Program-made: the position numbers and the translations under genes
Notes under the pieces: model-generated
What the model was told of the DNA's origin: nothing
What the model saw: only the letters and a program-made list of their open reading frames with translations
Database searches by the model: none
In this document: in pieces, positions 4,059 through 31,321 of the stretch
How positions within the stretch are numbered: position 1 is the stretch's first letter
Layout of the letters: each line of letters opens with the position of its first letter
DNA from: Candidatus Eremiobacteria bacterium
GTDB taxonomy: Bacteria; Vulcanimicrobiota; Vulcanimicrobiia; Vulcanimicrobiales; Vulcanimicrobiaceae
Direction: 5' to 3'
Assembly: GCA_963758295.1 (NCBI GenBank)
Contig: CAVWUU010000002.1
Span: forward strand, 32,001 to 96,000
DNA length: 64,000 bases

Positions 4059-4091
4059 GCGTTCCACCTTCAAAACTTCACGGAGTTATGC

Positions 4092-5105: not shown

Positions 5106-5123
5106 TCGTCGCGCATAGCAACG

Positions 5124-5196: not shown

Positions 5197-5227
5197 AAAA
5201 CTTCTTTACTAGGATGATCGCAAAGAC

Positions 5228-7163: not shown

Positions 7164-7179
7164 TTCAAGGATGACAACG

Positions 7180-8724: not shown

Positions 8725-9534
8725 TCGATCGGCGCGCTCCCAACGATAAACTGCTTGCGCACGACGCTACGCTCGTGCAAGAGGCCGCCGGCGGCCCAAT
8801 CGACATCGGGATCGTCCTCGGCAGCGGACTCTCGTCTTCGCTTCGCGATCGTTTTGCGGCGAAAGCGCTGCCCTACGATAAGCTTCTCGGGTTTCCGGTC
8901 GCGTCGCTGCGCGGCCACGCCGGCGAAGCGCTGGTGGGCACGTGGCAGGGCAAACGCGTCTGCGTCTTCGCCGGTCGCGTGCATTTGTATCAGGGCTTTT
9001 CGCCTCAGCAAGTAACGGTTAACGTTCGCCTGGCGCAAGCCGCCGGCGCTCGCATGATGATCTTGACGAACGCCGCAGGTGGATTGAATCCCGACTTCGA
9101 GCCGGGCGACTTGATGATGCTCAGCGATCATCTCAATCTCACCGGCCGCAATCCGCTTGTGGGCTTGCAGACCGAGAATCCGTTCGTTGACATGATGGAT
9201 TGCTATGCGTCGCGTCTGCGCGATCTGCTGCGATCTGCGGCGAAACCCGAACATCGTCTACGCGAAGGCGTTTATGCCGGTCTGCTAGGCCCGAATTACG
9301 AGACCGTCGCCGAAGGCGCGCTATCTGCGGGTAATCGGCGCCGATGCCGTTGGCATGTCGACCGTTTTGGAAACGATCGTCGCGCGTTTCCTCGGCATGG
9401 GCGTCACCGGGATCTCGCTCATCACCAACATCGTCGGCGCTCCCGAGACTTCTCACGCCGAAGTTACCGAACAAGCCTCGGCACGCGCTTCCCACTTCGC
9501 AGAACTCCTCGAATCTTTCATCGGAAAACTCTAG
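8721..9534 (+). CDS. punA: Purine-nucleoside phosphorylase (+1 frameshift near 9315, probably a sequence error)
   Basis: GIVLGSGL, GRVHLYQG, TNAAGG, GPNYET; shifted frame continues ARYLRVIGADAVGMST...FIGKL* ending at 9534. Confidence 0.88.
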
Positions 9535-9586
9535 TCATCCTGAGCTTGTCGAAGGACAAGCGCATATCAACAACGCTCACGTACCG
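9534..9586 (-). repeat. Single reverse-oriented copy of the 818-1390 repeat unit
   Basis: GTCATCCTGAGCTTGTCGAAGGACAAGCGCATATCAACA matches the reverse complement of the array unit. Confidence 0.85.
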
Positions 9587-9711
9587 CTCCTCATCATAAC
9601 TCACGGCATTCGACCATCGAGACGGGTGTTTTCAGGGAAATCTCATCGGGTTCCGGAGAAGCTTTCAGGTTTGGGCGCGATACTTGAAAGCGTTGATAAG
9701 GAGGACGACCG

Positions 9712-9828
9712 ATGGTGAAACGCGCGAACCGGGCACTGGATGAGATGCGGCTAGCGACGGCGCTGATTTACTTCGTTTTCGTGGGGGCGATCGCGGTGAT
9801 TGCCACGATCGCCTCTCACGTGCTCTGA
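9712..9828 (+). CDS. 38-aa single-TM small protein
   Basis: TAAGGAGG RBS 7 nt before ATG; MVKRANRALDEMRLATALIYFVFVGAIAVIATIASHVL*. Confidence 0.7.
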   Translation: MVKRANRALDEMRLATALIYFVFVGAIAVIATIASHVL

Positions 9829-9832
9829 AGAG

Positions 9833-12601
9833 TTAATGCCCGAAGCTGCGCGTGATGATGAAGCGCACGGTGGCCGGGCCGTAAGGAACGATGTTCCGTA
9901 AGCCTACCTGCCCGTTGGCCAGCGGAGCCGGTACTGCCGATCCGTACTGGACGTAATTGCCGGCGTCGGCTCCGAAAAGGTTATCCACGGAAACCTGCAC
10001 CGCCGTATCGCGCAGCACCGGCTGGCGATACGAGGCGGAAGCAACGAGAAACACCGGCATGTTGAAGGTGTTGTTCGGACCGTAGTACGTCAGTCCGAAC
10101 TGCGCGAACTGGCCGAAGCTGCCGCGGCGATGCACCTCGGCATAGCCCATGGAATAGGCTTCGCTTTTGTTTGAGATGCCGTTGAATGCGGGTGCGTTGA
10201 AGCCAATGTAATTTAGGCCCGGCACCACGCCGAGATTCGTCGTCAACGGTCCCGCCGCCGAGTCATAGAAGCCCGGCGGAATGTTATACGCATAGGCCCG
10301 TTGGAGCGAACCGGAGACCGTGAAGCCGTAGCCGCGAACCGGATCGTGGCGCAGCGATGCTTCCAAGCCCTCATAGCGGCTGCTCGCGAGGTTGGCGTTC
10401 GTCGTGATATAGACGGGGGTTCCGTTGAAGGACGTTCCGCTCGGATAAACGACGCCGACGAATTGGTTGCGAATGTTCGTTTGGTACGCGTCGACGGAGA
10501 AGATGTTGCCGCCCTTCAGACGCACGTCCGTGCCGAGGTCATAGCCGAATGAAGTCTCCGGCAAGAGCGATCCCGAGTTTTGCGAGATAGTAATCGTTCC
10601 GTTCACCGGTTGGGTCGTAGCCGGGTTGGTGTTCAGATTGTCGATCAGCTGCGGATATGGCGGCGCGATTGCCGAGCCGGCGGAGAAACGTACCGCGACG
10701 TTCGCATTCGGCAAATACGATATGCCCAGGCGAGGGTCGTCGTGCGTTGTCGTCGAGTGCGCGAACGTGAGGACGCCGTTCTCGCTCGAAGGCGTAAACT
10801 GATTCTGATAGACGTTATAGTAATTTGCAAGTGTCAGCTGCACTTTGTCGCTGAACGCGAAAACGCCGCGTAGCAAGTACGTATTAAAATCTTGGCGCGT
10901 GCCGCCCGGAATCGAAAAGGTCGTGGTGCCTGATCCGCCGTTTACCTTGTACGAATTCGTGAGCGACGTATTGCGGTCGTACGCAAACGTGTAGACGTTC
11001 GGCCCGACCGGGTGGTCGTATTGGAACGAAAAGCCATGCAGGTAGTCGTGATCCGACATGTTGTTCACGTAAGCCGACGAAGCCGGAACGGTAATCGTTG
11101 CCGGCCCGCCGGTGAAGAGGGTCGGTACGCTGCCGGCGCTGCCGAGCACCGCCGAACCATACAGGTTCAGCGTAGAGGTATACGGCGCTGTCGGCGACGT
11201 TGCATCGGAATACGTGGCGCGTTCGAGAACAGCGCTGTAGTAACGCGCCAAGATCGTATCGTTGTTGAACGTCGTGCGAAGATTCGCTTCGAACATCGGC
11301 TCGTTGTCGTACGTCCGTTGATTCGGAATCGTCGGGGTCGTATTCAGCGAGAAGAATTGCCCGCGCGAAAACGGTGTTCCCGCCGGATCGTAAGCCGGCG
11401 CCGGCGCAAAGACCGATGCGACCTGCGTCAGGCTTCCCGCGGGCGCATCGTAGTTCGACTGAATGCCGATATAGGCAGCCGAAAGAACAGTGGAGTCCGA
11501 GAAGTGATACTGGAGCTTCGCTAGTTCGCCGCGATTGAGGAAATTTGAATTCACGGTTTGGCAACACGCAATGAGCGACGTATAACCGGCATTCGGACTT
11601 CCGAGCGCGCCCGCAACCGGATACGGTCCGCTAACCCCATTAATGGGCTTGGCGCTCGTCGTTGAACCCGCAACGGTTTGCCCGTTTACGAGCGCGCCTT
11701 TCGGCAAGGAAATGTACGAAGGATACTGCTGCAGCGGCCCGCTGGTGCCGTAGCTCGCGTAATCTAGGAGATAGCCGACTTTCCCGATCGTGTCGGAGAG
11801 CCGCACGCTGCCGATCGTTCCGGAATAGTTATCAAAACCGAGCAACATGGAACCGCTCTGCTGTTGCGTCGGATCGCCGGTGCGGAAATTCAGCGTGCCG
11901 CCGATGCCGTAGTTGATCTCCGGGGCATACGCCGTCGGACCTTTCACGACTTCGACGTTATCGAACAGCAGCGAGTTAACGAGCATCGTCGGATAGTCGC
12001 CACGCGCGCCGTTGATTAGCGGATGGCCATCGATGAGCGTGGCTTTTTCATAATCGAGCGCGCCGCGCAGATTCGGCGACGTGATTGAACCCGGCGCCGC
12101 GGCATTGGCCGAACCCGGCCGTGCGCTCACCACACCCGGAATCTGATCGAGCACGTGACCGATTTGCACTTGCCCTTGATCGATGAACTGCTGGCGGCCG
12201 ACGGTCGCAATAGCGGAAGCGCTGGTATTGTACGTGCTCGTGGCCGACGCCGTAACCGTGGCGATCTGCTGCAACGTGCTCAATGATTCGGCACGCAACG
12301 TGAAGGCAACCGGCGCGGCCTGCGGCACCTGCACCGACGTTACCGTCGACGCAATAAAGCCGGGTTTAGAAGCGGTGACGTGATAGGTGCCGCTCGGAAC
12401 GTTCTCAATTGAGAAGTGCCCGCTTGCGTCGGTTTGCACAGGCTTTACAACCGATGGACGAATCGCGATTGCGACGTTGCCCAATGGCGCGCCCTGCGAA
12501 TCTATGACCGTTCCGCTAAGGGCAACGCTCTGCGCAAATGCAGGCTGCATACTAAATGCCGCGATGAAGGTAAACACGAGTAGATATCGCAGGTACGTCA
12601 C
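9833..12601 (-). CDS. TonB-dependent receptor with N-terminal carboxypeptidase-regulatory-like domain
   Basis: Signal peptide, SGTVIDSQG, plug (LDQIPGV, LRG, LIDGHP, EVVKGP, GGTLNF), barrel strands, VDNLF; start at 12601 or 12631. Confidence 0.9.
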   Translation of the reverse strand: MTYLRYLLVFTFIAAFSMQPAFAQSVALSGTVIDSQGAPLGNVAIAIRPSVVKPVQTDASGHFSIENVPSGTYHVTASKPGFIASTVTSVQVPQAAPVAFTLRAESLSTLQQIATVTASATSTYNTSASAIATVGRQQFIDQGQVQIGHVLDQIPGVVSARPGSANAAAPGSITSPNLRGALDYEKATLIDGHPLINGARGDYPTMLVNSLLFDNVEVVKGPTAYAPEINYGIGGTLNFRTGDPTQQQSGSMLLGFDNYSGTIGSVRLSDTIGKVGYLLDYASYGTSGPLQQYPSYISLPKGALVNGQTVAGSTTSAKPINGVSGPYPVAGALGSPNAGYTSLIACCQTVNSNFLNRGELAKLQYHFSDSTVLSAAYIGIQSNYDAPAGSLTQVASVFAPAPAYDPAGTPFSRGQFFSLNTTPTIPNQRTYDNEPMFEANLRTTFNNDTILARYYSAVLERATYSDATSPTAPYTSTLNLYGSAVLGSAGSVPTLFTGGPATITVPASSAYVNNMSDHDYLHGFSFQYDHPVGPNVYTFAYDRNTSLTNSYKVNGGSGTTTFSIPGGTRQDFNTYLLRGVFAFSDKVQLTLANYYNVYQNQFTPSSENGVLTFAHSTTTHDDPRLGISYLPNANVAVRFSAGSAIAPPYPQLIDNLNTNPATTQPVNGTITISQNSGSLLPETSFGYDLGTDVRLKGGNIFSVDAYQTNIRNQFVGVVYPSGTSFNGTPVYITTNANLASSRYEGLEASLRHDPVRGYGFTVSGSLQRAYAYNIPPGFYDSAAGPLTTNLGVVPGLNYIGFNAPAFNGISNKSEAYSMGYAEVHRRGSFGQFAQFGLTYYGPNNTFNMPVFLVASASYRQPVLRDTAVQVSVDNLFGADAGNYVQYGSAVPAPLANGQVGLRNIVPYGPATVRFIITRSFGH

Positions 12602-12604
12602 CCT

Positions 12605-14971
12605 ATGAAGCGCTCCGTCGGAAAAAAGCAACTACTCGCTGCTATCATTTTAAACTTAGCCTTTGCTGTGAGTGCGGTGTCGCCGGCGGCGGGGGCAGAG
12701 AAAGTTCGCATTGCAATAACTGACGATTCAGGCCGCCCCGTGGCTTCGGCGGCAGTCGTCGTATCCGGCGAAACGACCGTGCGCGCGATATCCGACGGCA
12801 ATGGTATAGCCACCATTGGACCGGTAGAAACACCCGCTACCGTCACGGTGAGCGCACCATCGTTTAAGGTGGAGCACCGGGCCATCGCGGCAGGCACGAC
12901 GAGCGTTTCAATCACACTAACGCCTTCCGCCGGCGCGCTGCACATCATCGGGTCCGTTACGGGGCACGGACGCACGCCTTTTAACGCGACGCCGGTCGCG
13001 CAAAAGGTTTTTCCGCGAGAAGCCTACCGCGATCAAGGCCAGCCATCCGCGCGTACCGTCATCGACCAAACACCGGGTGTGCTTGCCGCGCCGGCCGCAT
13101 CCGGAGGCGCAGGATCGCCATATGCTCCGAGCTCTGTCATCGTCCGCGGGAGTTTGCCGTACGAAACACCGGTGTCGCTCGATGGCGAGCCGGTATGGTT
13201 CGGCTCAACCGGAACCTTCGACCTGAACCTCGTGCCGACGTTCGATCTTCAGGAAGTGGAAATTGTGAAGGGCCCCGGCGACGTCGCGGGACTCGGGTCG
13301 GGCGTCGGCGGGGCGGTGAATTTTCGGACCTCGGAGCCCACCGCGGTGCGTCGCGCATTTCCGGAGACCGAGGTCGATTCGCACGGCGGGTCCTTCAGCG
13401 ACATTTCGTACGTCGGAACCGTGCCGGGCGGCAAGCTCGCATTCTCGTCGATGGCCGAGGTTGACGGAACGCCGTGCTGCGGGCCGCTTCCCGCCGATGC
13501 GGTGCGAAAGTCGTTGCTCCTGAAATTGCGGTACATGCCTTCGCAAGCGCTAACCGTGACCGGCACGTTTCTCGGAACCAATCTCGACCGGTCGCTCGGT
13601 GCAAGCAATTCCGCAGAATCGGCCGGCACGTTCTTCTCGCTGCTTCCCTCAACGAACGTTCGGGAGAACGAACGGTTCCGCTTTGAAGACGTTGTAACGT
13701 CGCTCGATCGGGGCGACGACGCCTACGCATTTCACCTTTATGATTCAGCGACGACGCGCGAACGGTACGACGGCCTTAATACGAATGCTACGGATCGTGC
13801 AAGCGGCGCAAGCCTGGAGTGGCAGCATGCCGCGGGAAAAAACTCGTATGGACTACTTGCGCGATCCACGTATTTCACGAGCGACAACAACGATCCGTAC
13901 GAACAGCCCTTAGCCGGCGGATCATCGGAAACGCTAACGTATTTGCGCGGGTCCGCTACGCTTCGTCCATCGTCGCGCGATGAAGTCGATCTCTCCGGCG
14001 GCGGCATCTTCACGGGCATGCGCACTGCAGCGTTTGCGACGGTGAATGAACAACGCACCGGTACTGCCCCTGAGGGGCGTATTGCCTTTTCCCATCTCAT
14101 GCGGCCGGGAGTATCGCTGCGTGGAAGCTATGGTGTTGATGCCATTGCACCGCCGCTCGATGCACTCTCGGGCAGCGACCCGGCCACTCGCACGCCGCTG
14201 AATCTTCCCTCAACCGAAGTTCCATTTCGCTCCTCCGTCGATCGTTTTGAAACCGCCGGTGGCGGCGACGTCGGCGTGGAATGGCGCCTGCACGGCGGAA
14301 GCACCACGTTTTCGGCCGACTGGTATTCGTCCGTGACCCATGATGCCTATATGCTCGAGCGTTCGCAGGTCGCCGGACCGCTGGAAAGCGATACCTGGTT
14401 CAACGGACCGCCGGTCGAGGAGAGCGGCATCGAACTCGCCCTACAGCAATTCAAACCGGTCGGCATGGGCTATATCGCGCAGATAGCCTTTCCGCGTACG
14501 ACCGTTCGTGGAAATCTCGATCCGTCGTTTTACAGCAACGGGAATCTTGCGATCGTTCCCGGCCCAAACATCGGCGGCGGCGCCTGGTTCACGCCCGGTG
14601 AGAACGATATCGCTGCGGAGCGCGTGCCTTACGCGCAAGGCTATACGGAAATCAGTTACAAGTGGCCGCGCGGCTCTCGTGCGTCGCTCGGCATGCTGTA
14701 CGTTGGATCGAACAATCCCTACGGGCAGCGCGCCTTCGCAACATTCAACAGCAATCTCGAGCTTTCGGTCGCCTCGCGCTCGAAGTTTCAGATCTCGGTA
14801 GAGAACCTGTTCAACAATCTCGACATTCCCGTCCCGCTTTTTGGCGGTGGAATCGGCGTACCGCTTGTAACCGGGACGTTGGCGATGCAGAACGCGCAGG
14901 GATTGGCTCCGCGCACGATTCGCTTCATGTACCGGCAATCGTTCGGCGAGGGCTCGATCTACGAACACTAA
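12605..14971 (+). CDS. TonB-dependent receptor
   Basis: IDQTPGV, VRG, LDGEP, EIVKGP, GGAVNF plug motifs; VENLFN near the C-terminus. Confidence 0.88.
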   Translation: MKRSVGKKQLLAAIILNLAFAVSAVSPAAGAEKVRIAITDDSGRPVASAAVVVSGETTVRAISDGNGIATIGPVETPATVTVSAPSFKVEHRAIAAGTTSVSITLTPSAGALHIIGSVTGHGRTPFNATPVAQKVFPREAYRDQGQPSARTVIDQTPGVLAAPAASGGAGSPYAPSSVIVRGSLPYETPVSLDGEPVWFGSTGTFDLNLVPTFDLQEVEIVKGPGDVAGLGSGVGGAVNFRTSEPTAVRRAFPETEVDSHGGSFSDISYVGTVPGGKLAFSSMAEVDGTPCCGPLPADAVRKSLLLKLRYMPSQALTVTGTFLGTNLDRSLGASNSAESAGTFFSLLPSTNVRENERFRFEDVVTSLDRGDDAYAFHLYDSATTRERYDGLNTNATDRASGASLEWQHAAGKNSYGLLARSTYFTSDNNDPYEQPLAGGSSETLTYLRGSATLRPSSRDEVDLSGGGIFTGMRTAAFATVNEQRTGTAPEGRIAFSHLMRPGVSLRGSYGVDAIAPPLDALSGSDPATRTPLNLPSTEVPFRSSVDRFETAGGGDVGVEWRLHGGSTTFSADWYSSVTHDAYMLERSQVAGPLESDTWFNGPPVEESGIELALQQFKPVGMGYIAQIAFPRTTVRGNLDPSFYSNGNLAIVPGPNIGGGAWFTPGENDIAAERVPYAQGYTEISYKWPRGSRASLGMLYVGSNNPYGQRAFATFNSNLELSVASRSKFQISVENLFNNLDIPVPLFGGGIGVPLVTGTLAMQNAQGLAPRTIRFMYRQSFGEGSIYEH

Positions 14972-16499
14972 ATCCAGGAGTGCAACCACATCCGTTGCAT
15001 CCATGCCCCATACGAGATCGTCATGCCGCTTAGGATCGGATAGAAGTAAATAAACCAGAGGACGGCAACGCCAAAATAGCCGCCGACAAACACACGCACG
15101 GCATTGACGTCCCACGCTCGGACGTTTCGCCATAGCCACTGCATTGCCACCGCCGTGCAGATGCACACGAGCGGGATGTCGACGTAAAAATGGTACTCCC
15201 AAGCAATGCGCGGCGAAAGCGGGCCCACGGCAACCACTGCGCGAGATAGGTCAGGACGACCAGTGCGTAGGCGCGACTACGCTCCCGAAACGCCAGGAAA
15301 CCGACGAACGGTACCGTCACGAGCCCCATCCACAGGATGATGGGATTCGGCAAAGACGTAATGATCGCAGCGGTGCGTACGTCTCCCATTTGGCCATAAT
15401 TGGCGTAGTACAAAATCGGCCGCAGATCGAGCGGCCAGGTCCACCACAACGAGGCATATGGGTGCGTCGCGGTGAGCGTGGAATGGTATTTATAGGCATT
15501 CACTTGCATCGTGATGATGTCGCTCAGCGTATAAGGGCGCGGCGCGAGCTGTGGCAAATCGCGAAGTCCCACGAAGTGCGGAATGTATGCAAGCGCGTAA
15601 ACGATGCCGATAGCGGCAATCATGCCGGCTGCAACAAGATCGACCGGAAAGAGCGCGCGCCGGTGCTTTGCGATCGCATAGACGGTCGCATAAGTTACTA
15701 CGCTGAACGCAACGAAGTACGCCATGACGCCGTACCATTTGCTCGCAACGAGCAGTGCGGCCGAAAATGCGAACAGCGTCAGCCATAATGCGCCGGCAGG
15801 CGGCCTAACGTAGACCCGATAGGCTACGTACAAAATACACGCAATAACGATGCCCGCGACGATTTTCGCTGCAACGATCTCATGCGGGAAGCGCAACAGC
15901 ACGATCGCTATCGAAAGCACCACCGCGACTGCGCCGCCGGCAAGCAGCCGTTTCAACGGGAAGAGTTGCCGCTCGGACGTTCGTTCGACGAGAGCGTCCC
16001 AATAACGCATGAACGTGTATAGCGTGGCAAGCGAGAAGACGACAACGAAACTTTCCGGTGTCGCGATGCGCGATTGCACGAAGTGCATGCCGTCGAACGC
16101 GAACAGGCCTGCAGCGTAGGCGCCGAAGAGCGTCGATCCCGTAACCCGCCGTGCGAGCACGTACAAGAGCCACACGGCGATCGCGCCCGCGACGACGTCT
16201 AAAAATCGCCATCCGGCCGATGTGTCGCCATTCGGCAATCCGCCAAAGAGGATAGTGGAGAGCGTGACGAGGAGCTTCGTGACCGGCGGATGCGTATTTT
16301 CGTAGATATACCGCCGTTGCAAATACTCTTCGGCCGCTCGCGCGAAGTAGACTTCGTCGAAAATCTTCTCCGGTGGAAACCAATAGCGGTACACCAACAT
16401 GAGGAACGACCCGACTGCCAGTCCAATTCCGACCAGCCGGTCGATGGTGCGCGTCCGGGTAGAAGAACGCGACATCGCGGCAGTTTCATAGCTTGCCAT
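14968..16499 (-). CDS. Dolichyl-phosphate-mannose-protein mannosyltransferase (PMT/GT39) family, frameshift near 15222
   Basis: FDEVYF, HPPVTK, SRIA, HPYASLWWTWP, NPIILW; C-terminus (SPRIAWEYHFY...WLHSWI) is in the adjacent frame. Confidence 0.85.
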
Positions 16500-16756: not shown

Positions 16757-17062
16757 TCATTCGCATCGGTAACTTCCGCTTGGATCGATCGAAAGACGCG
16801 TACCCGACACGACGATCGAGCGAATACGGTGATCCCAAAACGATAAGATCTTCACGGCAACGCGCGGAAGCCCGGCAATGATTTCACGCGCCCGGCGCGA
16901 TAGCGTCAAAGTGTCTTTGACCCACGGCGGATGATCGTGCGGCAGAAACGGTGTTTCAAGATCCGGCTCGCCGACAGCCGAAACAATCGGCTCGCTATGC
17001 GCGGTTTCGAGCGAAGCCGCAAGCGACGCAGCGCGATGTTCGCTTTCAATGCGACGAAGCAC
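16757..17062 (-). CDS. Hypothetical protein coupled to the sigma factor (may extend to 16582 via a frameshift near 16777)
   Basis: Overlaps the sigma stop; another frame continues EVTDANELIVEVYDVAMF. Confidence 0.45.
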   Translation of the reverse strand: MLRRIESEHRAASLAASLETAHSEPIVSAVGEPDLETPFLPHDHPPWVKDTLTLSRRAREIIAGLPRVAVKILSFWDHRIRSIVVSGTRLSIDPSGSYRCE

Positions 17063-17723
17063 GCAAGGCCTTTCTCATACGGCTAACAGCCGCGAGATGC
17101 AATTGCGACGCGCGCTGCGGCGAGATCTGCATCGACTTCCCGATCTCGCGCAGAGAGCGATCGAAAAAATAGTGAGCGCGTACGAGCTTTTGCTGGCGCT
17201 CCGGCAGTTGCTCGATCGCTTTGTGCACCGCGGATCGTTCGAGGTTTTCGATGAACTCGCACGCCGGGTCGTTGCGCCGGTCGCGTGCGAGCGATTCGCC
17301 ATCCGGAAGCGGAGCGTCTAACGAAAGCGGTTGGGTACGATGCGCAACAAGCGTTGCCCGCGCAAATCCTGGACAAATGGCGTCCACTTCTTTCACCGAG
17401 GGCACCTCGCCGCGCTCGACCGCGATTCGATAGCGTTCAGCTTCGCCCTCACGGACGGTGCGGCGGGCGCGCTCCGAGACGGGATCCATACGTCGAATCC
17501 CGTTGAGCATGGCGCCGGCTATAACACCGCTTGCATATTGCTCGAGCGTCGGCCCGCGCGTGGGATCGAAATTGTCGACGGCCCGAATGAGGCCGATACT
17601 GCCGTCGCCCACAAGGTCGTCGACATCGACGCCGGCAACCAGCCGGCGTATGCGACGCGCAATTCGCCTTACAAGAGGAAATAGCTCGCGGATCCGGCGC
17701 TCGCGGACCGTTTCAGCGGACAC
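17046..17723 (-). CDS. fliA: FliA/WhiG (sigma-28) family RNA polymerase sigma factor
   Basis: PLVRRIARRI, DDLVGDGSIGLIRAVDNFDP, LSLDAP, LPERQQ..SLREIG..ISPQRASQLH; flagellar neighbours. Confidence 0.78.
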   Translation of the reverse strand: MSAETVRERRIRELFPLVRRIARRIRRLVAGVDVDDLVGDGSIGLIRAVDNFDPTRGPTLEQYASGVIAGAMLNGIRRMDPVSERARRTVREGEAERYRIAVERGEVPSVKEVDAICPGFARATLVAHRTQPLSLDAPLPDGESLARDRRNDPACEFIENLERSAVHKAIEQLPERQQKLVRAHYFFDRSLREIGKSMQISPQRASQLHLAAVSRMRKALRASSH

Positions 17724-17910
17724 GATCGCCCAGCTGCGCCGCAAGTGCGGCGCCAAACCCCGCTTTATCTTGCTCTGCTATCGACTGCGCCAGCGACGTG
17801 ATCCCGAACGAGGCAACGGGGTCGCCATCCTTCGCCAAGGGCGCCAGGCACTGTTCGAGTAACATCGATTCGAGCGCGGCGCCCAGGCGGTTAACTCCTA
17901 CCGTATCCAT
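17713..17910 (-). CDS. Minimal FlgJ-like rod-binding domain protein
   Basis: AALESMLLEQCL...LAQSIAEQ..GFGAALAAQL resembles the FlgJ N-terminal rod-binding pattern; overlaps the sigma start. Confidence 0.55.
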   Translation of the reverse strand: MDTVGVNRLGAALESMLLEQCLAPLAKDGDPVASFGITSLAQSIAEQDKAGFGAALAAQLGDRVR

Positions 17911-17982
17911 GCGTCGACGCTATCAGCCGGCTGTTGCCAAATCGCTATGGACGCGTTACATATTCTCTAACGAGGTGTTGTT

Positions 17983-18417
17983 ATGGCAAGCGCAATCAAT
18001 GCTGAGCTCCAGGCTCCGCTTAATGGATTAGAGCAGGCGTGGAAACATGGCGACGGCGCAGCCTTCGCCGAACAGTGCACCGAGGACGTCGATTTCATCA
18101 ACATCCTCGGCATGCACGTTCAAGGGCGGCCGGCTGTCGCGGAGCTTCACAACAAGATCTTCAACGGTCCGTATAGGGGCAGCACCGTTACGTTCACCAT
18201 TGAAAGTGCTCGCGCAATCGGTTCCGATGCCGTGCTTGCCATCGTGCCAGGTCATCTCGAAATTCCGGAGGGTCCGGTAAAAGGCGCCGTCTTAACGGTT
18301 GCGAGCGTTTTGCTCCTCCGCGACGGCAGCGAATGGAAGATCGCCAACTTCCACAACACCCGGCGCGATTCCACACAACCGAGTCACCTCTCCGTAATGC
18401 GCGACGCAGTTAAATAA
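17983..18417 (+). CDS. SnoaL/NTF2-like (SgcJ/EcaC family) protein
   Basis: AWKHGDGAAFAE..TEDVDF..G..GR..H, WKIANFHNT; GAGGTG RBS. Confidence 0.85.
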   Translation: MASAINAELQAPLNGLEQAWKHGDGAAFAEQCTEDVDFINILGMHVQGRPAVAELHNKIFNGPYRGSTVTFTIESARAIGSDAVLAIVPGHLEIPEGPVKGAVLTVASVLLLRDGSEWKIANFHNTRRDSTQPSHLSVMRDAVK

Positions 18418-18757
18418 TATCCGCGATTGGCGCATCTCCCCTACCCGCACGACGGCAACGATCGTCTATTCGCTGAGGCCGTCATCAACAAATGGGTGCA
18501 GGTACCGTTTCCTATCATCAGCCGCCGTGCGGTCCTCATCAAGAGACACCGCATTCCATCTATCATCGTGTCCCACGTGATCAAACCCCTCGATAGGAAA
18601 TACAGAAACACGAAAGCACAATCGCGGACGCAATTGCCAAGGGCGGCCTAATGCTGGAAACTTTGCCTTCTCGACGGAACGCGAGTTAAGCGCTTTCAAA
18701 ACGCCAACGAAGCGGCCGCGAAAGCGCTGAAACGGATTTAAAACGCGAGAGCTAGTT

Positions 18758-19193
18758 ATGCCGCACATAGAGATTGACGCTAAATCATGGGGCGGGGTTT
18801 TTATTTACCCCCTTACATCCGCCATAGAAATTGAAGCCGACCCGTTGGCCGCGACATTCGCCGTTGGCTTTGTTTTTCGGCAATTGCCGGACTTGCGGTG
18901 GCTCAAAGAATCGGTCCATTTCCTCATTGAAAAAGGCGCGAGCTTTTGGCTTATTCGGGCCTGAGGCAAGTAAGGCGCATGCCGTGGTAGATGAGATCGT
19001 CGTCCGATTGAGTCTTGAAGAGACCATACTAAGCATGGACTTTGAGGACGAGCTACATAATGTCGTTCTGTCGTTCTTTGGTATTGCTCAAGGAAGCACC
19101 CAGTCGGGTGTCGACAGGTTTGCCTTTTTCGTGCCCATTTCTATGATGAGCGAGGTCGATGAATCGATAATGCAGGGACTCAATTTACGCTGA
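18758..19193 (+). CDS. Hypothetical cargo protein, apparently frameshifted at the T-run near 18945
   Basis: ORF 18758-18964 joins 18831-19193 (...EKGASF/GLFGPEASKAHAVVDE...) if one T is removed; lower GC. Confidence 0.5.
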
Positions 19194-19201
19194 ACGTTAG
19201 A

Positions 19202-19251
19202 CTAGCCGCTCTCTAGATTATTAGCAACGTCTCCTCTGCGCGCGCGGTGAT
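19202..19251 (-). pseudogene. Decayed displaced copy C of the flgG 3' end
   Basis: Minus strand ATCACCGCG...GCAGAGGAG..GTT GCT AAT AAT CTA GAG AGC GGC TAG = VANNLESG* versus IANNLQRG*. Confidence 0.6.
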
Positions 19252-19436: not shown

Positions 19437-19506
19437 CTAGCCACGCTGAAGATTGTCGGCAATACGCAGCATTTGATCCTCTGCCTCGACGCCTTTAGCG
19501 GTGCAT
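19437..19506 (-). pseudogene. Displaced copy A of the flgG 3' end
   Basis: 19499-19437 encodes AKGVEAEDQMLRIADNLQRG*, 16/20 aa identical to the FlgG terminus; preceded by ATGCACC. Confidence 0.9.
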
Positions 19507-19591
19507 GCGAAATGCGGAGCGGAGCTCCTTCATCTTGAGATTTTCCGCTGGCGCAAAGCGCGCAAGGCTGCCGCGTCGAACACGTCATACG

Positions 19592-19906
19592 GTGAGAGAA
19601 CGCACTAGTACGAACGGGAAGGCTGCGGTGTCCTTATTCTGCGCACTGGTCTTGCTGATGATACCAGTGGTCGCGATGATAGCGCACTGGGGATTTTCGT
19701 ACGTGACCTACGGCTTGACAAATCTGCCGCTGGCGTCAGCTTCTGTCGCTGCTTCTCTTAGCATATTGGCTGCCGCACTGCTTCGTAACAGTCTCCGTAA
19801 AAGCGAACTGCGGATAATGACGATCTGCCTCATTTGGCTTATCGCTATAGTTGTTGGAGGTCTCGGCGAGACATATCTCTACCTCACCTTGGCTGGATGT
19901 TGCTAG
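19592..19906 (+). CDS. Small ~3-TM membrane protein (cargo)
   Basis: Three hydrophobic segments, AT-richer codons; start uncertain. Confidence 0.6.
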   Translation: MRERTSTNGKAAVSLFCALVLLMIPVVAMIAHWGFSYVTYGLTNLPLASASVAASLSILAAALLRNSLRKSELRIMTICLIWLIAIVVGGLGETYLYLTLAGCC

Positions 19907-20032
19907 CGCCCCGGCAGCTGGGCGTATCTTTCCGGATCGATTTCCTCGGTGGGCCATAGCAGGCCCACAATCGTTTTTCGAGCGTTCGCTATCGGATGAC
20001 GACTGGCGGCTGTTGATAGCCGCGATGCGCAT

Positions 20033-20102
20033 CTATCCTCGCTGCAGGTTATTCGCAATACGAAGCATCTCATCCGCGGCCTGTACGCCTTTAGCGGTGC
20101 AT
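20033..20102 (-). pseudogene. Displaced copy B of the flgG 3' end
   Basis: 20095-20033 encodes AKGVQAADEMLRIANNLQRG*, identical in aa to 22138-22076; preceded by ATGCACC. Confidence 0.95.
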
Positions 20103-20213
20103 ACAAGATGCAGATGCACGAAGAAACGTTAGCAAGCGGTTATCGCCGGCGAACGACGCGAGATTACATATGTCGGGTGCGGCAGAGGCCGCAAGATACG
20201 CGAGCCGGAACGT

Positions 20214-22074
20214 ATGATGTGCCGGGCTCTAGTAGAGGTGCCCATCTTGAGTGATCGAGCGCGCGCTCTTTGGCGAATCTGGCTACTGACGTTCTGCGCA
20301 TTGACCGCGCTGCTATCGATCGCGGAACTGCTTGATGTAACAGGCGCTATCGGTAAGGCCCCTTGGTATGGGTTATGGGGAGCCACTATGGGCGTCGCGG
20401 CGTCACAACCCTATATGGCCGAGGTAATGAGCATCGATCCGGGAAGAGCTTCGGATCGCGGCGGCCTTCGCCGAGGGCGACCTGCTTGACGTGCGCGCAA
20501 ACAACCTCGTCGATCGCTTCGCGATTCTAACGAATTCGGCGCAACCTCTGGCCGGGAAGACGATACTCGTCTCGGTAACGCGCGGCACCCGCCATATGCC
20601 CCTTCGCGTCGTGCCGCTCCCTGTAAACGTCATGCGGCGCTTGGATCAAATCATCGCGCCGATTGCCGTTCTCTGGCTCACGCTTTTTGCATCAGTCGTC
20701 GCGTGGCGGCGTGGGTACGTTCCCGGAAATCTTCTTCTATCGTCGGTGCTGCTTCTCACGGCGATTGTAAGCGGTGCGCCGAGCCACGGTTTTGCCGCGC
20801 CCTGGGCTTGGGCATATGTCGTCCTCGCGATCTGTGTATTTGCAGCGCCTTTAGGTGTGGCAATGTGGGCGACGTACGCAAGCGGCTTCGCGCATCCTCT
20901 TTCCCGGACACGCCGCGTCGCGCTATGGACATGCTATGTGTTCGTTGCATCTGCGGTTGTAATCGGCTGCGCCGAACTTCTAGGAACCATCACACTCTGG
21001 TTCGATCCGGTCGGCTTGTCGTTTCGGCCAATTTTGGCCCTACCAATGTTTGCAGCGATTCTGGCTGCATTGGCCTGTAGTTTACTGGCAATAGCCGAAT
21101 GCCGCGGAATCGATCGTCAGCGCGCGGCTTGGTCGCTCATTCCGTTGCCGATTGTCTATTTATCTTTGCAGGCGTTCGCCTTTATAAACTTTACATCATC
21201 ATCTTACGCCGCATACATTGGCTTTGCGTATCTCTATAGCACGCTTACGTTTATCGCGCCGCTCGCGCTTACGTACGCTGCCGTGAACCGCAGACTCATA
21301 GATCTCGGTTTTGTGTTAAACCGAACGCTGGTCTTCGCCATTGTGTCGGCGATCGTGATTGGTGCCTTTGTTGTCGCAGAGTGGGCGGCAAGCGAATGGT
21401 TCGTGAGCGCGAGTCATACGAGCAGCGTCGTCGTCGGCATGGTAGTAGCGCTGGCGCTTGGCGTGTCGATGCGCTACATTCACAGGTCTGTGGATAGCTT
21501 CGTCGATCGGGTTTTCTTTCGGAAGCGACATGAGGATGAAGCGGCGCTACGCAATTTTGCGCATGAGTCGTCATACATTACGGATCGATCGGTGTTATTG
21601 GAGCGATGCGCTCAGATCGTCCGGCAGCACACGGATACAGATGAGGTGGCGATCCTCATGCGTGGCGGATCCGGTTCATATTTGCAATATTCTAACGGGC
21701 GATCCGCCACCTCAGAGAACGACTCCGGAATCATTGCCCTGCGTGCTTGGGGCAAGCCCCTAGATTTACACGATGCAACGAATTCCGAATTGCAGGGATC
21801 TGTCGCGTTTCCGATGATGGCACGCGGTGTGCTGGTCGGGGCACTCGTCTGCGGGTCAAAAAAAGGCGGTGAGTCGTTTGCGCCTGATGAGATCGAAGCG
21901 CTCATGGCGCTTGCGCATGGCGTGGGCGTTGCGCTCGACTCTTTGAATCGCGAATCCGGCGACTCAATCGCATCGCTGCACGAAGCCGTGATCGGATTAC
22001 AAGCCAGCGTCGACACGATGCAAGAGAGTATCGCCGCTGAGTTTCGTGGATTCAGAAACCTGCTTCGACCATAA
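20214..22074 (+). CDS. Membrane sensor-like protein: TM + PDZ-like + multi-TM + GAF-like domain (frameshift near 20471)
   Basis: IDPGRASDRGGLR/EGDLLDV PDZ-like motif spans the shift; ~9 TM; C-terminal AFPMMARGVLVGALVCG..FAPDEIEALMALA. Confidence 0.7.
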
Positions 22075-22075
22075 G

Positions 22076-22804
22076 CTATCCGCGCTGCAAATTGTTCGCG
22101 ATCCGCAACATCTCGTCAGCTGCCTGAACCCCCTTGGCATTTGCTTCATAGGCGCGCTGCGCGCTGAGGATTTCCATCATGGATTCGATGATGGAAACGT
22201 TGGATTGTTCGAGCATGCCGAAGCGAATTTTCGGACCGTTGTCAGTGCCGGCATTGACGTAATGCGGAGCGCCGGAATGGGGGGTGGCATAGAACAACGT
22301 TCCGCCGATGGCACGCAAGTGTTCGGGTGATGGGAACTCGGCCACGCGGATATGCGCGATGCGCTGGGTGCCTTTAGGCGTATTCACCGTAAGCATCCCG
22401 TCTTCGGCGACCGTCGCGGAAAGCGCGTCGGCGGGTATGCGAAACCCATCGAGGCGCCAACCATCGCCGTTGCGCAATGCGCCATCGGAACCGCGTGAGA
22501 ATTCACCGCCGCGGGAGTAAGCCCGATGACCGGCCGAATCGACAACGGCGAAAAATCCGGGTCCGTCTATAGCAAGATCGAAGGAGCCGCCACTCTTCTC
22601 GAGTTTGCCTTGTTTGAAGAAGACTTGTTCGCCGGTCGCGATTGTTCCGAGCCCGTTCTCGCCCGGAGCAGCGAGCGCGGCAAAGCTTTCCGACGAACCT
22701 TTGAAACCGTTCACCTCCGAGTTGGCGAGATTGTTGGCGATTACGTCGAGGTTCTTTTGTTGCGCAGCCATGCCGGTCGCGGCGGCGAAAAGCGCGCGAT
22801 CCAC
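22076..22804 (-). CDS. flgG: Flagellar basal-body rod protein FlgG-like
   Basis: ATGMAAQQKNLDVIANNLAN..GFK, DLAIDGPGFF, LEQSNV..M.EI..AQRAYE; GTG overlaps the flgF stop (TAGTG). Confidence 0.88.
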   Translation of the reverse strand: MDRALFAAATGMAAQQKNLDVIANNLANSEVNGFKGSSESFAALAAPGENGLGTIATGEQVFFKQGKLEKSGGSFDLAIDGPGFFAVVDSAGHRAYSRGGEFSRGSDGALRNGDGWRLDGFRIPADALSATVAEDGMLTVNTPKGTQRIAHIRVAEFPSPEHLRAIGGTLFYATPHSGAPHYVNAGTDNGPKIRFGMLEQSNVSIIESMMEILSAQRAYEANAKGVQAADEMLRIANNLQRG

Positions 22805-23406
22805 TAGCGTACCCTCGCAACGTCGTTTGCAGCCTTTTGGCGCGCTTGATCGATAGCGCCGGCGACTTTCTCCTCGCTTTCGAAGGCACGCTGGGCCGAA
22901 AGCACAGTCACCATTTCTTGCACCGCATTGACGTCGGCGCACTCGAGAAAGCCGGTACGCACCGTCGCGCCGGGATCGACCGGAATGCGATCGAGCTGGC
23001 GGCCGGAAAGCATGACGCGGCCGCGTTCGTCGATCTCGGCCCCGTCCGGAACTCGCAGACGCCCATGAAGTCCGAGAAGTGCCCGTCCTTCCACGTCGCG
23101 CAAGACCCCGTCGCGATCGCGCGAGAAGTGTCCGTCCCGCGTACCGGTTACGTTGCCGCTGGAACCTTGAACGCGAAAGCAGCCTCCGCCGACGATCGCC
23201 AGATCGAAGGGCTCGCCGGTTCGTCGCAAAGCGCCATGTTCGGGCGACGTAGTGCGTTGGATTTCCACGCCACGCTGCGTTAACGCGCCACGTGCAAGCG
23301 CTTTGCGAAAACCGTCGGTCGAGACGTTCGCGAGATTTGAGGTTGCGATTTCCAAGCGCGTGCGTGCCGCCGCCATAGCGCTAAAGGCCCATTCGATGCC
23401 GTCCAT
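22804..23406 (-). CDS. flgF: Flagellar rod protein FlgF-like (short)
   Basis: NLANVSTDGFR, TGEPFDLAIVGGGCF, TRDGHF, GFLECADVNAVQEMV..AQRAFE. Confidence 0.75.
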   Translation of the reverse strand: MDGIEWAFSAMAAARTRLEIATSNLANVSTDGFRKALARGALTQRGVEIQRTTSPEHGALRRTGEPFDLAIVGGGCFRVQGSSGNVTGTRDGHFSRDRDGVLRDVEGRALLGLHGRLRVPDGAEIDERGRVMLSGRQLDRIPVDPGATVRTGFLECADVNAVQEMVTVLSAQRAFESEEKVAGAIDQARQKAANDVARVR

Positions 23407-24113: not shown

Positions 24114-24986
24114 CTAACGCATGCGCCGGAAAATCGGCTGCTCTGCGACGACGTGACGGAACGCTCGCTCGTGCACGGTGTTTGCAAGCGATTCATGCTG
24201 CCCGAGCCCAAGAAACCCAAGATGCATCAGGCTGTCGAAATACAGGCGGTGCATGCGGTACTGAATCGCGCCGTTGTACAAGGGCAGAATTCCTCGGGCC
24301 ACGATGGCGTGGAATTCGTTGATCGAACCGTCTTCCACCGGATTGTGCCGCGCAAACATTACATTCTGGCGAAGACGCTGGCCCGCGACCGCAAAGCGGT
24401 CCTGAATGTCGAAATGCTGCGATAGCGGTGAAACGAGTCCCGCTTGGCGGCCAAGGGCAATTAAGTCGTTCTCCGTGCGGTGCTCGAAGACGCCTGCCTT
24501 CGCGATTGCCGCCGCAACGTCGGTAATGCACGTGGCGTAGATAATTGTCTTCTCCAGCATGCCCGCTTCATCGAGCAAAGCGGCAAGGGAGTAGGCGTCG
24601 CCGCCGGTCCCGCCTCCCGGGATCCAAATGCGCACGAACGAGTACGTCTGCAACAACGGTACGACGTGCGAAATGAAGGCCTTGAAAAAGAGCGGATCGT
24701 GGAAGAGTTCGGCGCTGCCGCCGCTCATTGACACGATGAACGACACAAGCGCGCGCTCGTCGTGCAACAGCCGGTCCTGCAGCCCCGAGATGGTGTCTAT
24801 GCCTTCTGCACGCATCGAATCGGCGATGCGCCGGCGGAGCACCGATTGGTTGAAGTTTCGGAAGTCGTAGCCGCCGTAACGCATGAGGGCGTCAAGGAAG
24901 AGCTGGAGCTCGATGTCCGCCAGTTCGTCCCTGCGGAGGTTCAACGCCGTCAATCCGGCGTCTACGCCCCCTACTTGTTCAACCAT
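24114..24986 (-). CDS. CheR-like SAM-dependent methyltransferase fold protein with degenerate motifs
   Basis: [41 protein letters not shown]; overlaps the kinase stop. Confidence 0.85.
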
Positions 24987-27900
24987 ATCTTCAACAACGA
25001 CGTGAGCTGGTCGATGTCGACCGGCTTACTTACGTATTCGGAGGCGCCTGCCGCGATGCACGCGTCACGATCGCCCTTCATCGCTTTAGCAGTAAGCGCG
25101 ATGATCGGGATGTTGCTGATACGTTCCTCCGCGCGAATTCGGCGGATCGTCTCGAAGCCGTCCATTTCCGGCATCATGATGTCCATCAAAACCACGTCGA
25201 TGTCGCCGCGGGTTCGCAGCGTCGTAATGCCCTGCAGACCCGATTCCGCGCTGACGACGTCCATGCCGTAGGAACGCAATGCCGCTTCGAGGGCGAAGAT
25301 GTTGCGCGAGTCGTCGTCGACGATGAGTACGCGCTTGCTGTGCAACGACACCAGGGACGGATCGCCGCCCGACGGCGCCTTCTTCGCGCTTCCGAGATCG
25401 GCTTCGACGCGATGCAAGAAGAAGTTCAGTTCGTCGAGCAACCGCTCCGGCGCGTGTCCGTCTTTGACGATAATCGTCGATGAGAGGCGCCGCAAACGTG
25501 CTTCTTCGTCACGAGTCAGATCGCGGCCGGTATACACGATGACCGGAACGTTGCTCGAGCCCGGACGCGAGCGCATTTCTTCGATGAACGAATCGCCGGC
25601 CATATCGGGCAAGCCGAGGTCGACGACGACGCAGTCGAACGTCTGCGCCGCGAGCGCTGAAAGCGCCGCTTCGGCGGAACCGACGGCTTTGACGCTCATT
25701 TCGCCCGTTCCGATAAGATTGACCATCGCATTGAGCTGCGTCAGGTCATCTTCGACGACGAGCACGTTCTTGCCGCGATTTTCCGCAAACCCGAGCAGCC
25801 GGTCGAAGGTGTCCATCAACGCTTCTTCCGACACCGGCTTCTGCAAGTGCGCCACCGCGCCCGCTGCAATGGCGCGCTGCTGATGCTCGTCTCCGGAGAT
25901 GACGTGCACCGGAATGTGCGACGTTGCGCTCGTGCGCTTCAGACTGTCAAGTAACTGCCACCCGTCCATGTCGGGCAAGCCAACGTCGAGCGTGATGGCA
26001 TCAGGCACGTAACGGTTCGCCAGCTCGAGCGCTTCGCGCCCGTTATGCGCGACGATGCCTTTGAAGCCGCGCTCGCGTGCAAACGTGAGCAACAGTTTCG
26101 CGAACGTCGGATCGTCCTCCACGACGAGCAACGTCCGTTGATCCGGCGTGATCGTTTCGCGATCGTCCGCTTCGGTAACGGCTCGTGTAACGCGATGTTC
26201 CAGACGTTCGACCACTTCGTGCACGTGCGCGCCCGTTTGGGGACGAGCCTCGTGAACCACCGTGACCTCCGCGCGTTGCGCGGTCGCGGCGCGTTGCGCC
26301 GGGTGGAAGAGCGTGAACGTGCTGCCAACGCCGACGGCGCTTTCGACCCCGATTTCGCCGCCCAGCAAACCGGCGATTTCGCGGCTGATCGCGAGACCGA
26401 GACCGGTACCGCCGAACTTGCGCGACGTTCCCATGTCCGCTTGTTGGAACGCTTCGAAGATGACGTTGAACTTATCGCTCGGGATGCCGATGCCGGTATC
26501 CGTTACCGCGAAGGACACTGCCGGTCCGGGAACCGGCAACGTGCGGTCGTTCGTCATGCTGATGTGCAGCGTGATCGCGCCTTCGGTGGTGAACTTGAAC
26601 GCGTTGGAGAGCAGGTTCTTCAGAACTTGCTGCAAGCGCGTCGGATCTGTCACGATCGAGTTCGGCACGTCGCCGTCTCGGGCAACGACGAACTTGAGGT
26701 TCTTGTCCGCGGCGATTTGGCTGAACGTACGCTTGACTTCACGCTCGATCGAATCGATCGAAACATCCAGCAAGTCGATTGCCGTCGTTCCCGATTCGAT
26801 CTTCGAAAGGTCGAGAATGTCGTTGATAAGCGTGAGCAAATCCGTACCGGCCGAGCGAATCGTTTGCGCGAATTCGATCTGTTTGCCCGTCATGTTGCCT
26901 TCCTGGTTCTCTGCAAGCTGCTTGGAGAGAATGAGGAGCGAGTTGAGCGGCGTGCGCAACTCGTGCGACATGTTCGCGAGGAACTGCGACTTGTATTTCG
27001 ACGTAAGGGAAAGCTGCTCGGCCTTCTTTTCGAGTTCCGTTCGCGCTTCTTCGATTTCGCGCGTCCGGCGTTCGACTTCGGCGTTGCGTTCCTGAAGGAG
27101 ACGCGCCTTTTCTTCGAGCTCGTCGTTCGTCTGTTTGAGCTCGAGCTGCTGGCTTTGCAGTTCGGTCGTGAGCGACTGCGACTGCTTGAGAAGCTCCTCC
27201 GTACGCATCGACGCCGAAATCGTGTTCAGCATGACGCCGATCGACTGCATGAGTTGATCGAGGAACAGCAAGTGAATTTCGCTGAAGCGTTCGAGCGATG
27301 CGAGCTCGATGACGGCCTTGATTTCGCCTTCGAACAGCACCGGCAGTACGACCACGGACACCGCGTTCATGGAGCCGAGCCCCGAACCGATCTTGAGGTA
27401 ATCGCTCGGGACTTCCGTGAGCGCTATGCGCGCCTTCTCAACGGCACATTGCCCCACGAGGCCTTCGCCGAACGGCACGGCGCGGTTCAGGCGGCGATGA
27501 CGCGGCAACGCGTAACTTGCGATGAGTCGCAGGCTCGCCTCGCCGTCGGTCACGTCGGTCATGTAGAATCCGCCGGCCTGCGCGTTGACCAGCGGAACGA
27601 GTTCCGACATGATGAGCTGCGTGACGGCCGTAATGTCGCGCTGGCCCTGGAGCATGGAGGTAAAGCGCGCGAGGTTCGACTTGAACCAGTCTTGCTCGGT
27701 GTTCTTTCGCGTCGTGTCGCGAAGGTTCTGAATCATTTCGTTAACGTTGCGCGTCAACTCGCCGACTTCGCCGCGGGCTTCGATGTCGATCGTTCGCGAA
27801 AGGTCGCCCTTCGTAACGGCCGTCGAAACCTCGGAGATGGCGCGAATCTGGTTCGTGAGCTGCGCGGCAAGCTGGTTGACGTTATCCGTCAAGTCACGCC

Positions 27901-30900: not shown

Positions 30901-31234
30901 GGAAAACGAGATCGTCGACCAGTTGGTTGACCGACTCGATGCAACCGCGCCACGCACCCTTCGCGCCTTCCGAACCCGCGCGCTTGCCGATTTGGCCTTC
31001 GCGCCCAACCACCTCACTGATACGTCCGAGCTCTTGATGCAGTTCTTGACCGTGTCCGATACAATCGTTGAATGCCTGTGCGATCTCACCGTCGATTCCG
31101 GTGAGATTTCCGGGCAAGCGCACGCTAAAATCACCGTCGCGCGCGGCTCGCAAAGCAGCAAGCAGAGCCGTCATTCTAAGACGGCCCGGCTCCGAATCGT
31201 GCGGTTCGGTGGGCTCAATAGTGACTGTCGACAT
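24971..31234 (-). CDS. Poly-HAMP GAF hybrid histidine kinase with three receiver domains (OsaA/group III HK-like)
   Basis: About 11-12 92-aa HAMP units, [37 protein letters not shown], three REC domains. Confidence 0.96.
27800..31050 (-). repeat. Intragenic 276-bp tandem repeats encoding the HAMP array
   Basis: [10 protein letters not shown] x10 plus one [10 protein letters not shown] and a degenerate N-terminal unit; boundaries approximate. Confidence 0.9.
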
Positions 31235-31321
31235 CCTGCGCAGGTGCCTCCAACGATTCAATTAGACGGACAAAGCCGAGGCTGTGGTCAGAAGACTCAC
31301 CCTCGGTCAGCATGCACGGTT

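Follow-up and report, generated by a model that had tools for sequence, protein, structure and literature searches.

How can the end of a gene come to stand a second time further downstream, recoded throughout, while the gene itself remains whole? This question is raised by a flgG-like gene in the window, the 64,000-nt stretch of DNA analyzed here, which was taken from a Candidatus Eremiobacteria bacterium (assembly GCA_963758295.1, contig CAVWUU010000002.1, positions 32,001 to 96,000). The last 20 codons and the stop codon of this gene, which we call its live tail, recur in recoded form on the same strand as a second set of 63 nt, displaced tail 1 (Table 1). In this report, we compare the locus with those of related genomes and propose that it was probably formed by the tandem accretion of small cassettes at a serine-recombinase attachment site (attB) inside flgG, in the way that SCC elements accumulate at rlmH. 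The genome to which the window belongs (3.03 Mb in 6 contigs, 82% complete) is denoted G000, its relatives in the family, a group of uncultured soil bacteria, are denoted by other G numbers, and the loci that were fetched are denoted by L numbers.

Results

Recoded copies of the flgG tail in the window

The live tail and displaced tail 1 both translate to AKGVQAADEMLRIANNLQRG followed by a stop codon. The first-pass annotation, which had quoted the two sequences correctly, had reported 15 differences in 63 nt, affecting 14 codons and no amino acid, and a count by script bore this out. Because only 42 of the 189 single-base changes possible in the live tail are synonymous, the chance that 15 of 15 substitutions would all be of this kind is about 1.6e-10, and in a simulation none of 200000 random draws of 15 substitutions left the protein unchanged. 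Two more copies, both absent from that annotation, were found. Displaced tail 2 encodes AKGVEAEDQMLRIADNLQRG and a stop codon, differing from the live tail at 19 nucleotides and in 4 amino acids, and a third, degenerate copy was read by eye. In addition, an identical 18-mer precedes displaced tails 1 and 2 and runs into their first 11 nucleotides (two matches in the window, with 0.01 expected), and no further tail copies were found elsewhere in the 3.03 Mb of G000. The gap between flgG and the sigma factor gene in this genome is 4.3 kb.

Table 1. Features of the flgG locus in the window, listed from flgG to the sigma factor gene
Feature	Coordinates	Strand	Evidence or remark
flgG-like distal-rod gene, 243 aa	22076..22807	-	Pfam, NCBIfam
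Live tail, last 20 codons and stop	22076..22138	-	Site profile: tail part only, no P arm
Cassette 1, 1980 bp	20096..22075	.	Cargo: GAF-domain membrane protein gene, + strand
Cassette 1 ORF	20491-22074	+	Pfam GAF 4.2e-09; stop 1 nt from flgG stop
P arm 1, putative element-side half attachment site	20096..20119	-	Directly upstream of displaced tail 1; with this tail, nhmmer hit 20033-20117, profile positions 3-87, E=2.7e-24
Displaced tail 1	20033..20095	-	Read as earlier working flgG end
Cassette 2, 533 bp	19500..20032	.	+ strand ORF and terminator-like hairpin
Cassette 2 ORF	19505-19906	+	133 aa, hydrophobic, no family
Cassette 2 terminator-like hairpin	19949-19968		
P arm 2	19500..19523	-	With displaced tail 2, nhmmer hit 19437-19518, profile positions 6-87, E=6.6e-18
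Displaced tail 2, older, 4 aa changes	19437..19499	-	
Degenerate tail remnant 3, internal deletion	about 19202..19245	-	nhmmer E=1.6, profile positions 43-87; weak, tentative
Further inserted DNA, no recognizable tail	17757..19201	.	
DUF4440/SnoaL-like gene in inserted DNA	17983-18417	+	Commonest cargo type elsewhere
FliA/WhiG-like sigma factor gene	17046..17756	-	Ancestral direct downstream neighbor of flgG

The gene that bears the live tail has the Flg_bb_rod, LlgE_F_G_D1 and Flg_bbr_C domains (Pfam); it scores 199.6 bits against the NCBIfam FlgEFG subfamily, above the cut-off of 70.25, and 198.3 against the flgG equivalog, below the cut-off of 252.75. A flgF-like gene (22804-23406) directly precedes it. 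G000 contains two flgF/flgG pairs, and the other pair (G000:C4:9696-11077) is about 40% identical to the targeted one. The targeted pair is the second set, and it lies beside a CheR gene and the gene of a 2096-aa hybrid histidine kinase (24114-31261, minus strand) with 11-12 HAMP repeats, one GAF domain and three receiver domains.

Recurrence of the junction across the family

We compared 89 family loci, comprising the window, 8 regions and 80 more fetched regions. Among the 83 loci with the sigma gene in view, its distance downstream of flgG is 71-490 bp in 57 and 0.56-8.8 kb in the remaining 26; the comparison indicates that in the ancestral state flgG was followed directly by the FliA-like sigma gene, as it is in uninserted relatives. 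Extra tails were detected by tblastn with the tail in 18 of the 89 loci, all of them on the flgG strand and downstream of the gene. A motif of about 22 nt, hereafter the P arm, stands before each displaced tail, and the consensus of 56 distinct sites reads cgTC.gCtTTTtgTATGCACtc, followed by CTAAaGGcGT. A 30-nt junction pattern, searched with up to 3 mismatches through 348 family genomes, matched 54 places in 41 of them, versus 4 for the reversed control pattern. A tail is present at 29 of the 30 pattern sites that were fetched, the remaining one being a chance match, and flgG and/or the sigma gene lies within 1.5 kb of all tail-bearing fetched sites except L259, which is inside the G104 array already covered by L098.

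The repeat architecture is thereby defined: by the site profile, no P arm ever stands before the first tail of a locus, and all later full tails consist of P arm plus tail. Arrays hold 1 to 5 cassettes, the largest, in G046, having five arm-plus-tail sites in a row, and the sigma gene follows the last tail of an array at about its native distance. All junctions are at the AKG codons of flgG, and cassettes occur at this site in at least 11 genera. Metagenome contigs yielded 51 pattern matches and 11 loci with tails, all in arrays and none in a new context; the single match in viral contigs had no FlgG tail, and only 2 of the 44 matches to the first pattern in species-representative contigs were relevant. 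Among sequencing runs, only 2 shared as much as 5-6% of the words of the stretch.

Several loci deserve separate mention. In L042, from G002 of the same genus as G000, an N run begins exactly at the junction, right after the flgG AKG codons; it reflects either masking or a gap in the scaffold brought about by the repeat, and the locus was therefore left unscored. In L097 (G112), L111 (G083) and L103 (G014), flgG appears interrupted: either the match stops around residue 190 and the tail follows after another 80-92 nt, or the gene falls into two parts. Frameshifts or assembly errors may account for these interruptions. Gaps of 3.5-8.8 kb between flgG and the sigma gene, with no recognizable tail or arm, are present in L100, L110, L169, L164 and L124, where the cargo includes a Dyp peroxidase, a subtilase and a TonB-type receptor; they represent either older insertions with decayed marks or a different process. 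Finally, a repeat starting GTCATCCTGAGCG stands right after tail stop codons in different genera (L093, L135, L121 and L039) and looks like a dispersed REP/MITE-like element that is unrelated to the P arm.

Origin of the live and displaced tails

The first-pass annotation had proposed that both tails evolved under selection as working FlgG ends. This is supported by the pooled divergence between live and displaced tails (23 displaced tails from 16 genomes, the decayed G199_d2 being omitted), with a pS of 0.74, a pN of 0.039 and a pN/pS of 0.053. Its view that the copy is neither a recent duplication nor an assembly repeat likewise agrees with our finding that only the motif of about 22 nt, and no flgG body, stands upstream of the displaced tails, where identity to flgG amounts to 42 of 150 positions; nor did the copy prove to be a paralog remnant, which would have refuted that view.

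The proposal that each cassette brings its own tail gained support from comparisons with uninserted relatives. G208, which has no insert, and G277, which has one cassette, share flgG bodies that are identical at 140 of 150 positions. The displaced tail of G277 matches the G208 tail at 58 of 63 positions and the next 60 nt match at 53, whereas the live tail matches at 54 of 63 and the DNA after it at 15 of 60. The switch between the two falls within the first 11 nt of the tail, at nucleotides 7-11 or, if one synonymous change is allowed, at the AA of the Lys codon. This clean genome pair shows that the live tail of G277 is foreign, and that its displaced tail belongs to the chromosome. A nearest-relative test covered the seven inserted loci for which an uninserted relative reaches at least 78% identity; this relative was closer to the displaced tail in 5, to the live tail in 1 and to neither in 1. 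In addition, the live tail of G199 is of an 'ML..N' form, versus 'MM' in its genus mates G012 and G159 and in its own first displaced tail. By these three lines of evidence, the cassette is the source of the new tail, and the live tail of the window would have come in with cassette 1.

A sharp rise in synonymous divergence at the AKG codons, which the first-pass annotation had expected of tail replacement, was looked for in two comparisons. Between G000 and its closest relative, G003, synonymous changes affect 12 of 19 codons in the tail and 101 of 183 in the rest, a profile that is uninformative because synonymous sites are saturated. Closer pairs, when pooled, show a modest shift, with a tail-to-rest ratio of 0.82 in 29 uninserted pairs and of 1.12-1.23 in 7 pairs with an insertion, the pairs being non-independent.

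Exchange within tails also appears to occur. Between G000 and G003, the live and the displaced tail seem to have traded their first halves, which hints at crossovers or conversion inside the tail and thus at some homologous exchange, and the live and displaced tails of G095 are nearly identical. Since the latter differ at only 4 of 63 nt, recoding is not universal. It is plausible, as had been suggested from the window, that recoding blocks loop-out or re-targeting, the longest identical run between the live tail and displaced tail 1 being 7 nt.

Size, cargo and spread of the cassettes

Between successive tails, the cassettes measure 0.37-2.5 kb; they have no integrase and usually carry a single gene. 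In 18 of 24 of them, the longest ORF runs antisense to flgG. Among the 116 ORFs of 30 inserted loci, Pfam identified no recombinase, transposase or nuclease. DUF4440/SnoaL-like proteins are recurrent cargo; GAF membrane proteins, cupins, glyoxalases, metallo-beta-lactamase-fold, GNAT, alpha/beta hydrolase and HTH proteins, among others, were also found. A consensus promoter scan of the P arm found none. Homologs of cassette 1 of the window are present in G003, in G163 and on one metagenome contig. The GAF membrane-protein gene of this cassette is split in the window into parts in different frames (20214-20489 and 20491-22074, plus strand), and the homologous proteins are unsplit in G003 (664 aa) and G163 (645 aa); the split reflects either a frameshift (a pseudogene) or an assembly indel.

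Cassettes are common to several genera. The 55 cassette entries, several of which are one locus fetched twice, form 31 clusters, and several clusters span genera and array positions. Cassettes may be more similar than the genes around them, as in G164_c2 and G242 (90.5% over 878 nt, with 78% for the flanking flgG and 76% for sigma) and in G000_c1 and G163_c1 (75.5%, with 68% for flgG), and the reverse case is found in G012_c1 and G199_c2 (70.6%, with 81.6% for flgG). The position-1 cassette of G014 is 93% identical to the position-3 cassette of G104, and the position-1 cassette of G012 corresponds to the position-2 cassette of G199; because the same types are shifted in array position, these pairs indicate growth of the arrays at the proximal, flgG side.

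Large serine recombinases and symmetry of the site

In G293, G250 and G261, which belong to one genus, the flgG body is without a tail match after it. In these genomes and in G228, flgG reads AKGVQ/H and then passes into unrelated sequence that is the reverse complement of the arm. The elements at these four sites are larger than the cassettes and encode a large serine recombinase (LSR) with Resolvase, Recombinase and Zn_ribbon_recom domains; among PDB entries, it is related in sequence to TP901-1 integrase, SPbeta YokA and TnpX. The LSR orthologs are 61-65% identical to one another and occur in 4 of the 348 family genomes, in one genus only and always at the flgG site; a 37% relative in G051 lies elsewhere. 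About 27-32 nt separate the start of the LSR gene from the P arm in G293, G228 and G261; in G250, where the element is reversed, the start is 56 nt past the AKG junction. LSR genes thus stand beside the same arm and at the same position in four relatives. The G293 element, about 13 kb long, is bordered on one side by flgG and on the other by an arm-plus-tail site, with the sigma gene next; it also encodes (L319, about 2050-15290) a shorter second serine recombinase, a fusion of a DNA methylase with an Mrr-like endonuclease domain and, on the flgG side, an HTH and ImmA/IrrE-type regulator pair. None of the four LSR elements supplies a proper tail, and FlgG ends there in unrelated residues; for this reason they do not qualify as simple precursors of cassettes that bear tails. 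Neither an LSR nor a fragment of one (E<1e-6) was detected in any cassette, and no serine recombinase of any kind was detected in the 82%-complete G000.

In the attP and attB sites of serine recombinases, two inverted-repeat half-sites flank a central dinucleotide at which crossover takes place. Each LSR element has ends that form an inverted repeat centered on the AA of the Lys codon, with agreement at 15-17 of 22 positions, and the P arm of the cassettes is the arm found beside the LSR genes. The best dyad center of the 56 cassette sites is likewise between the two A's of the Lys codon. Dyad symmetry between this conserved P arm and the start of the tail amounts to 4.5-4.9 of 8 inner and 4.1-4.3 of 7 outer positions, versus 2.77 and 1.85 with shuffled arms, and 0 of 1000 shuffles reached the observed values. 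Covariation of the arm with the cassette's own tail did not differ from that with the neighboring tail. Judged from these comparisons, the flgG site and the element ends have the anatomy of LSR attP and attB sites with a central dinucleotide, and of the LSR-type features that we looked for, both inverted-repeat half-sites and one precise insertion position were found.

Discussion

Our data suggest a model whereby successive elements land at an attB inside the flgG paralog. The crossover would fall at the AKG lysine codon, 20 codons short of the gene end, and integration would place the P arm of about 22 nt directly before the resident flgG end and push that end downstream, while the small cassettes would bear at their other end a complete working copy of the last 20 flgG codons. 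Because of this full copy, flgG would stay intact and the junction would resemble a fresh attB; the next element could therefore land there, building a tandem array in which the newest cassette adjoins flgG and the oldest tail is farthest off. Displaced tail 1 would then be the earlier end of flgG, shifted by the landing of a cassette, with repeated insertions in the family, and the 15 synonymous differences would be due to both tails having evolved as working FlgG ends in separate lineages. The array in G000 would by now be a relic, in a genome without a detected serine recombinase.

In this model, the LSR is the likely maker of the cassette junctions and the central AA the presumed place of crossover, and cassettes that lack a recombinase would have been moved in trans or would be remnants. 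To our knowledge, a hybrid of a half-element and a half-chromosomal site is not a normal substrate for LSR integration. A circularized cassette would have such a hybrid site, which calls for a permissive enzyme or another route; either the LSR may thus be permissive, or the cassettes may spread otherwise, through decay or through homologous exchange via the conserved flanks. CcrAB acts on several att combinations. A further point against the model is that cassettes occupy at least 11 genera versus one genus for the LSR orthologs. We regard as doubtful, if conceivable, the further idea that the cassettes are not relics and constitute an active integron-like gene-capture system, with the LSR acting in trans on circles that carry an arm/tail hybrid site. 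If this were true, each event would regenerate flgG and a fresh attB and so stack accessory genes beside the flagellar operon, and synonymous recoding would keep neighboring tails from recombining.

Cassettes surely can spread between relatives by homologous recombination, and exchange inside the tail is suggested by the apparent half-tail swap of G000 with G003 and by the small difference between the two tails of G095. The whole arrangement might be explained in these terms, with no dedicated enzyme, as scars of homologous or homology-facilitated illegitimate recombination with the DNA of relatives, for which flgG and the sigma gene served as anchors. This seems to us improbable, since it leaves unexplained the motif of about 22 nt before all displaced tails whatever their cargo (56 distinct sites), its dyad symmetry and identity with the arm beside the LSR genes, and the constant position of the junction at AKG. 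Local tandem duplication can yield direct repeats, and in G002 the N run stands exactly at the junction, as an assembly artifact might; nevertheless, we give practically no credence to a duplication, a flgG paralog remnant or an artifact, all of which are refuted by the 24% nucleotide divergence with an unchanged protein, by the missing flgG body upstream of the copies and by the same architecture in dozens of independent assemblies, single-contig genomes included. The layout also resembles the carboxy-terminal duplications made by mobile ORFs, and the recoded tail could confer immunity to re-cutting in a nuclease-driven homing process (TnpB, a homing endonuclease or similar). We consider such homing extremely unlikely; the 116 ORFs of the 30 loci and 18 ORFs of the LSR elements include no nuclease, TnpB or homing-endonuclease family, and non-coding conservation extends over only about 22 nt.

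In their small size, their mostly single genes, their lack of an integrase and their GNAT, glyoxalase, cupin and SnoaL/DUF4440 cargo, the cassettes bring integrons to mind, and all 11 genomes checked encode one strong Xer-like recombinase. An integron-like or tyrosine recombinase (Xer or a lost integrase), for which motif plus tail would be an attC-like or core site, is nevertheless very unlikely in our estimation. The arrays and their surroundings are free of tyrosine recombinases, and PF00589 is absent from the 116 and 18 ORFs; no IntI was found at the arrays, and neither an element integrase nor a remnant of one, only the Xer-like gene elsewhere. Cargo orientation is mixed, with the longest ORF antisense to flgG in most cassettes. 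As a single strand the site folds no better than shuffled sequences (z from -1.3 to +1.0 in 14 sequences), which leaves a hairpin of the attC or HUH type unsupported. We rejected Xer/dif because flgG is situated 11-16% of the chromosome away from dnaA and not at the terminus (10 single-contig genomes), and because G000 has no dif-like palindrome with these arms. As a separate observation, the single-contig genomes G045, G020 and G144 gave one tyrosine recombinase hit each, Xer-like, with no dif site found, and one such hit per genome suggests a single-recombinase Xer system in the family.

Among known systems, the closest to accretion at a serine-recombinase site in flgG is that of the SCC elements (SCCmec and others) of staphylococci, which the available part of the source describes at the 3' end of rlmH/orfX and as moved by the CcrAB and CcrC LSRs (PMC13739063). 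As far as that text goes, the likeness to the flgG cassettes comprises LSR integration into the 3' end of a conserved gene; degenerate inverted-repeat half-sites with a central dinucleotide, one of them in the coding frame; tandem 'composite' arrays with internal att sites; and units that have att sites and no recombinase gene (PMC13739063). In contrast to SCC as portrayed there, the flgG system belongs to the phylum Eremiobacterota, targets a flgG paralog and involves a single LSR, no CcrA/CcrB pair having been seen; its repeated unit is a full 20-codon replacement tail and not a short core, and most of its units are single-gene cassettes of 0.4-2.5 kb. Moreover, the LSR elements at flgG leave the gene end unrestored, and the flgG system is known from sequence alone.

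Phage 21 is one of the elements that integrate at icd in E. coli. The e14 prophage, another, is accompanied by the C-terminal pseudogene icdC and, similarly to the flgG cassettes, carries an alternative 3' end for its host gene and strands the original at its far side; in the portion of the source at hand, its excision is visible as a block of synonymous changes (PMC13626634). Unlike the cassettes, e14 is described there as a 15-kb prophage with its own tyrosine integrase, a single element that forms no array (PMC13626634). CIMEs, too, keep att sites, have lost integration genes and accrete in tandem at the 3' ends of genes, according to the available sections on them (PMC5704250). They are presented there as decayed ICEs or IMEs (PMC5704250), whereas about 50 flgG cassettes include no decay intermediates or recombinase fragments. 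Integron arrays and the dif modules of Acinetobacter resemble the flgG cassettes, within the accessible text, in that their modules are small, lack a recombinase, bring varied accessory genes and are each delimited by a conserved recombination site (PMC6449649). Unlike modules of these two kinds as outlined there, the flgG cassettes have no IntI or attC-like fold, are mixed in cargo orientation and are not at dif, and they offer no evidence for Xer.

In the literature, supplements aside, we found no description of such a flgG cassette system, and as an integration site flgG turned up only in engineering work on E. coli. New are the phylum, the target gene, the recombinase/att pair, the full-length, synonymously diverged tails and the dominance of tiny single-gene cassettes. 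The model provides a concrete mechanism, with an enzyme family, a putative attP, an attB and a crossover position, for displaced and synonymously recoded gene ends, and it does so in a phylum without a cultured model. A natural serine-integrase/att pair that lands in a coding sequence while the gene stays whole may also be of use as an integration tool. For the family, a flagellar rod gene would thus be a long-lived hot spot of gene gain, in at least 11 genera.
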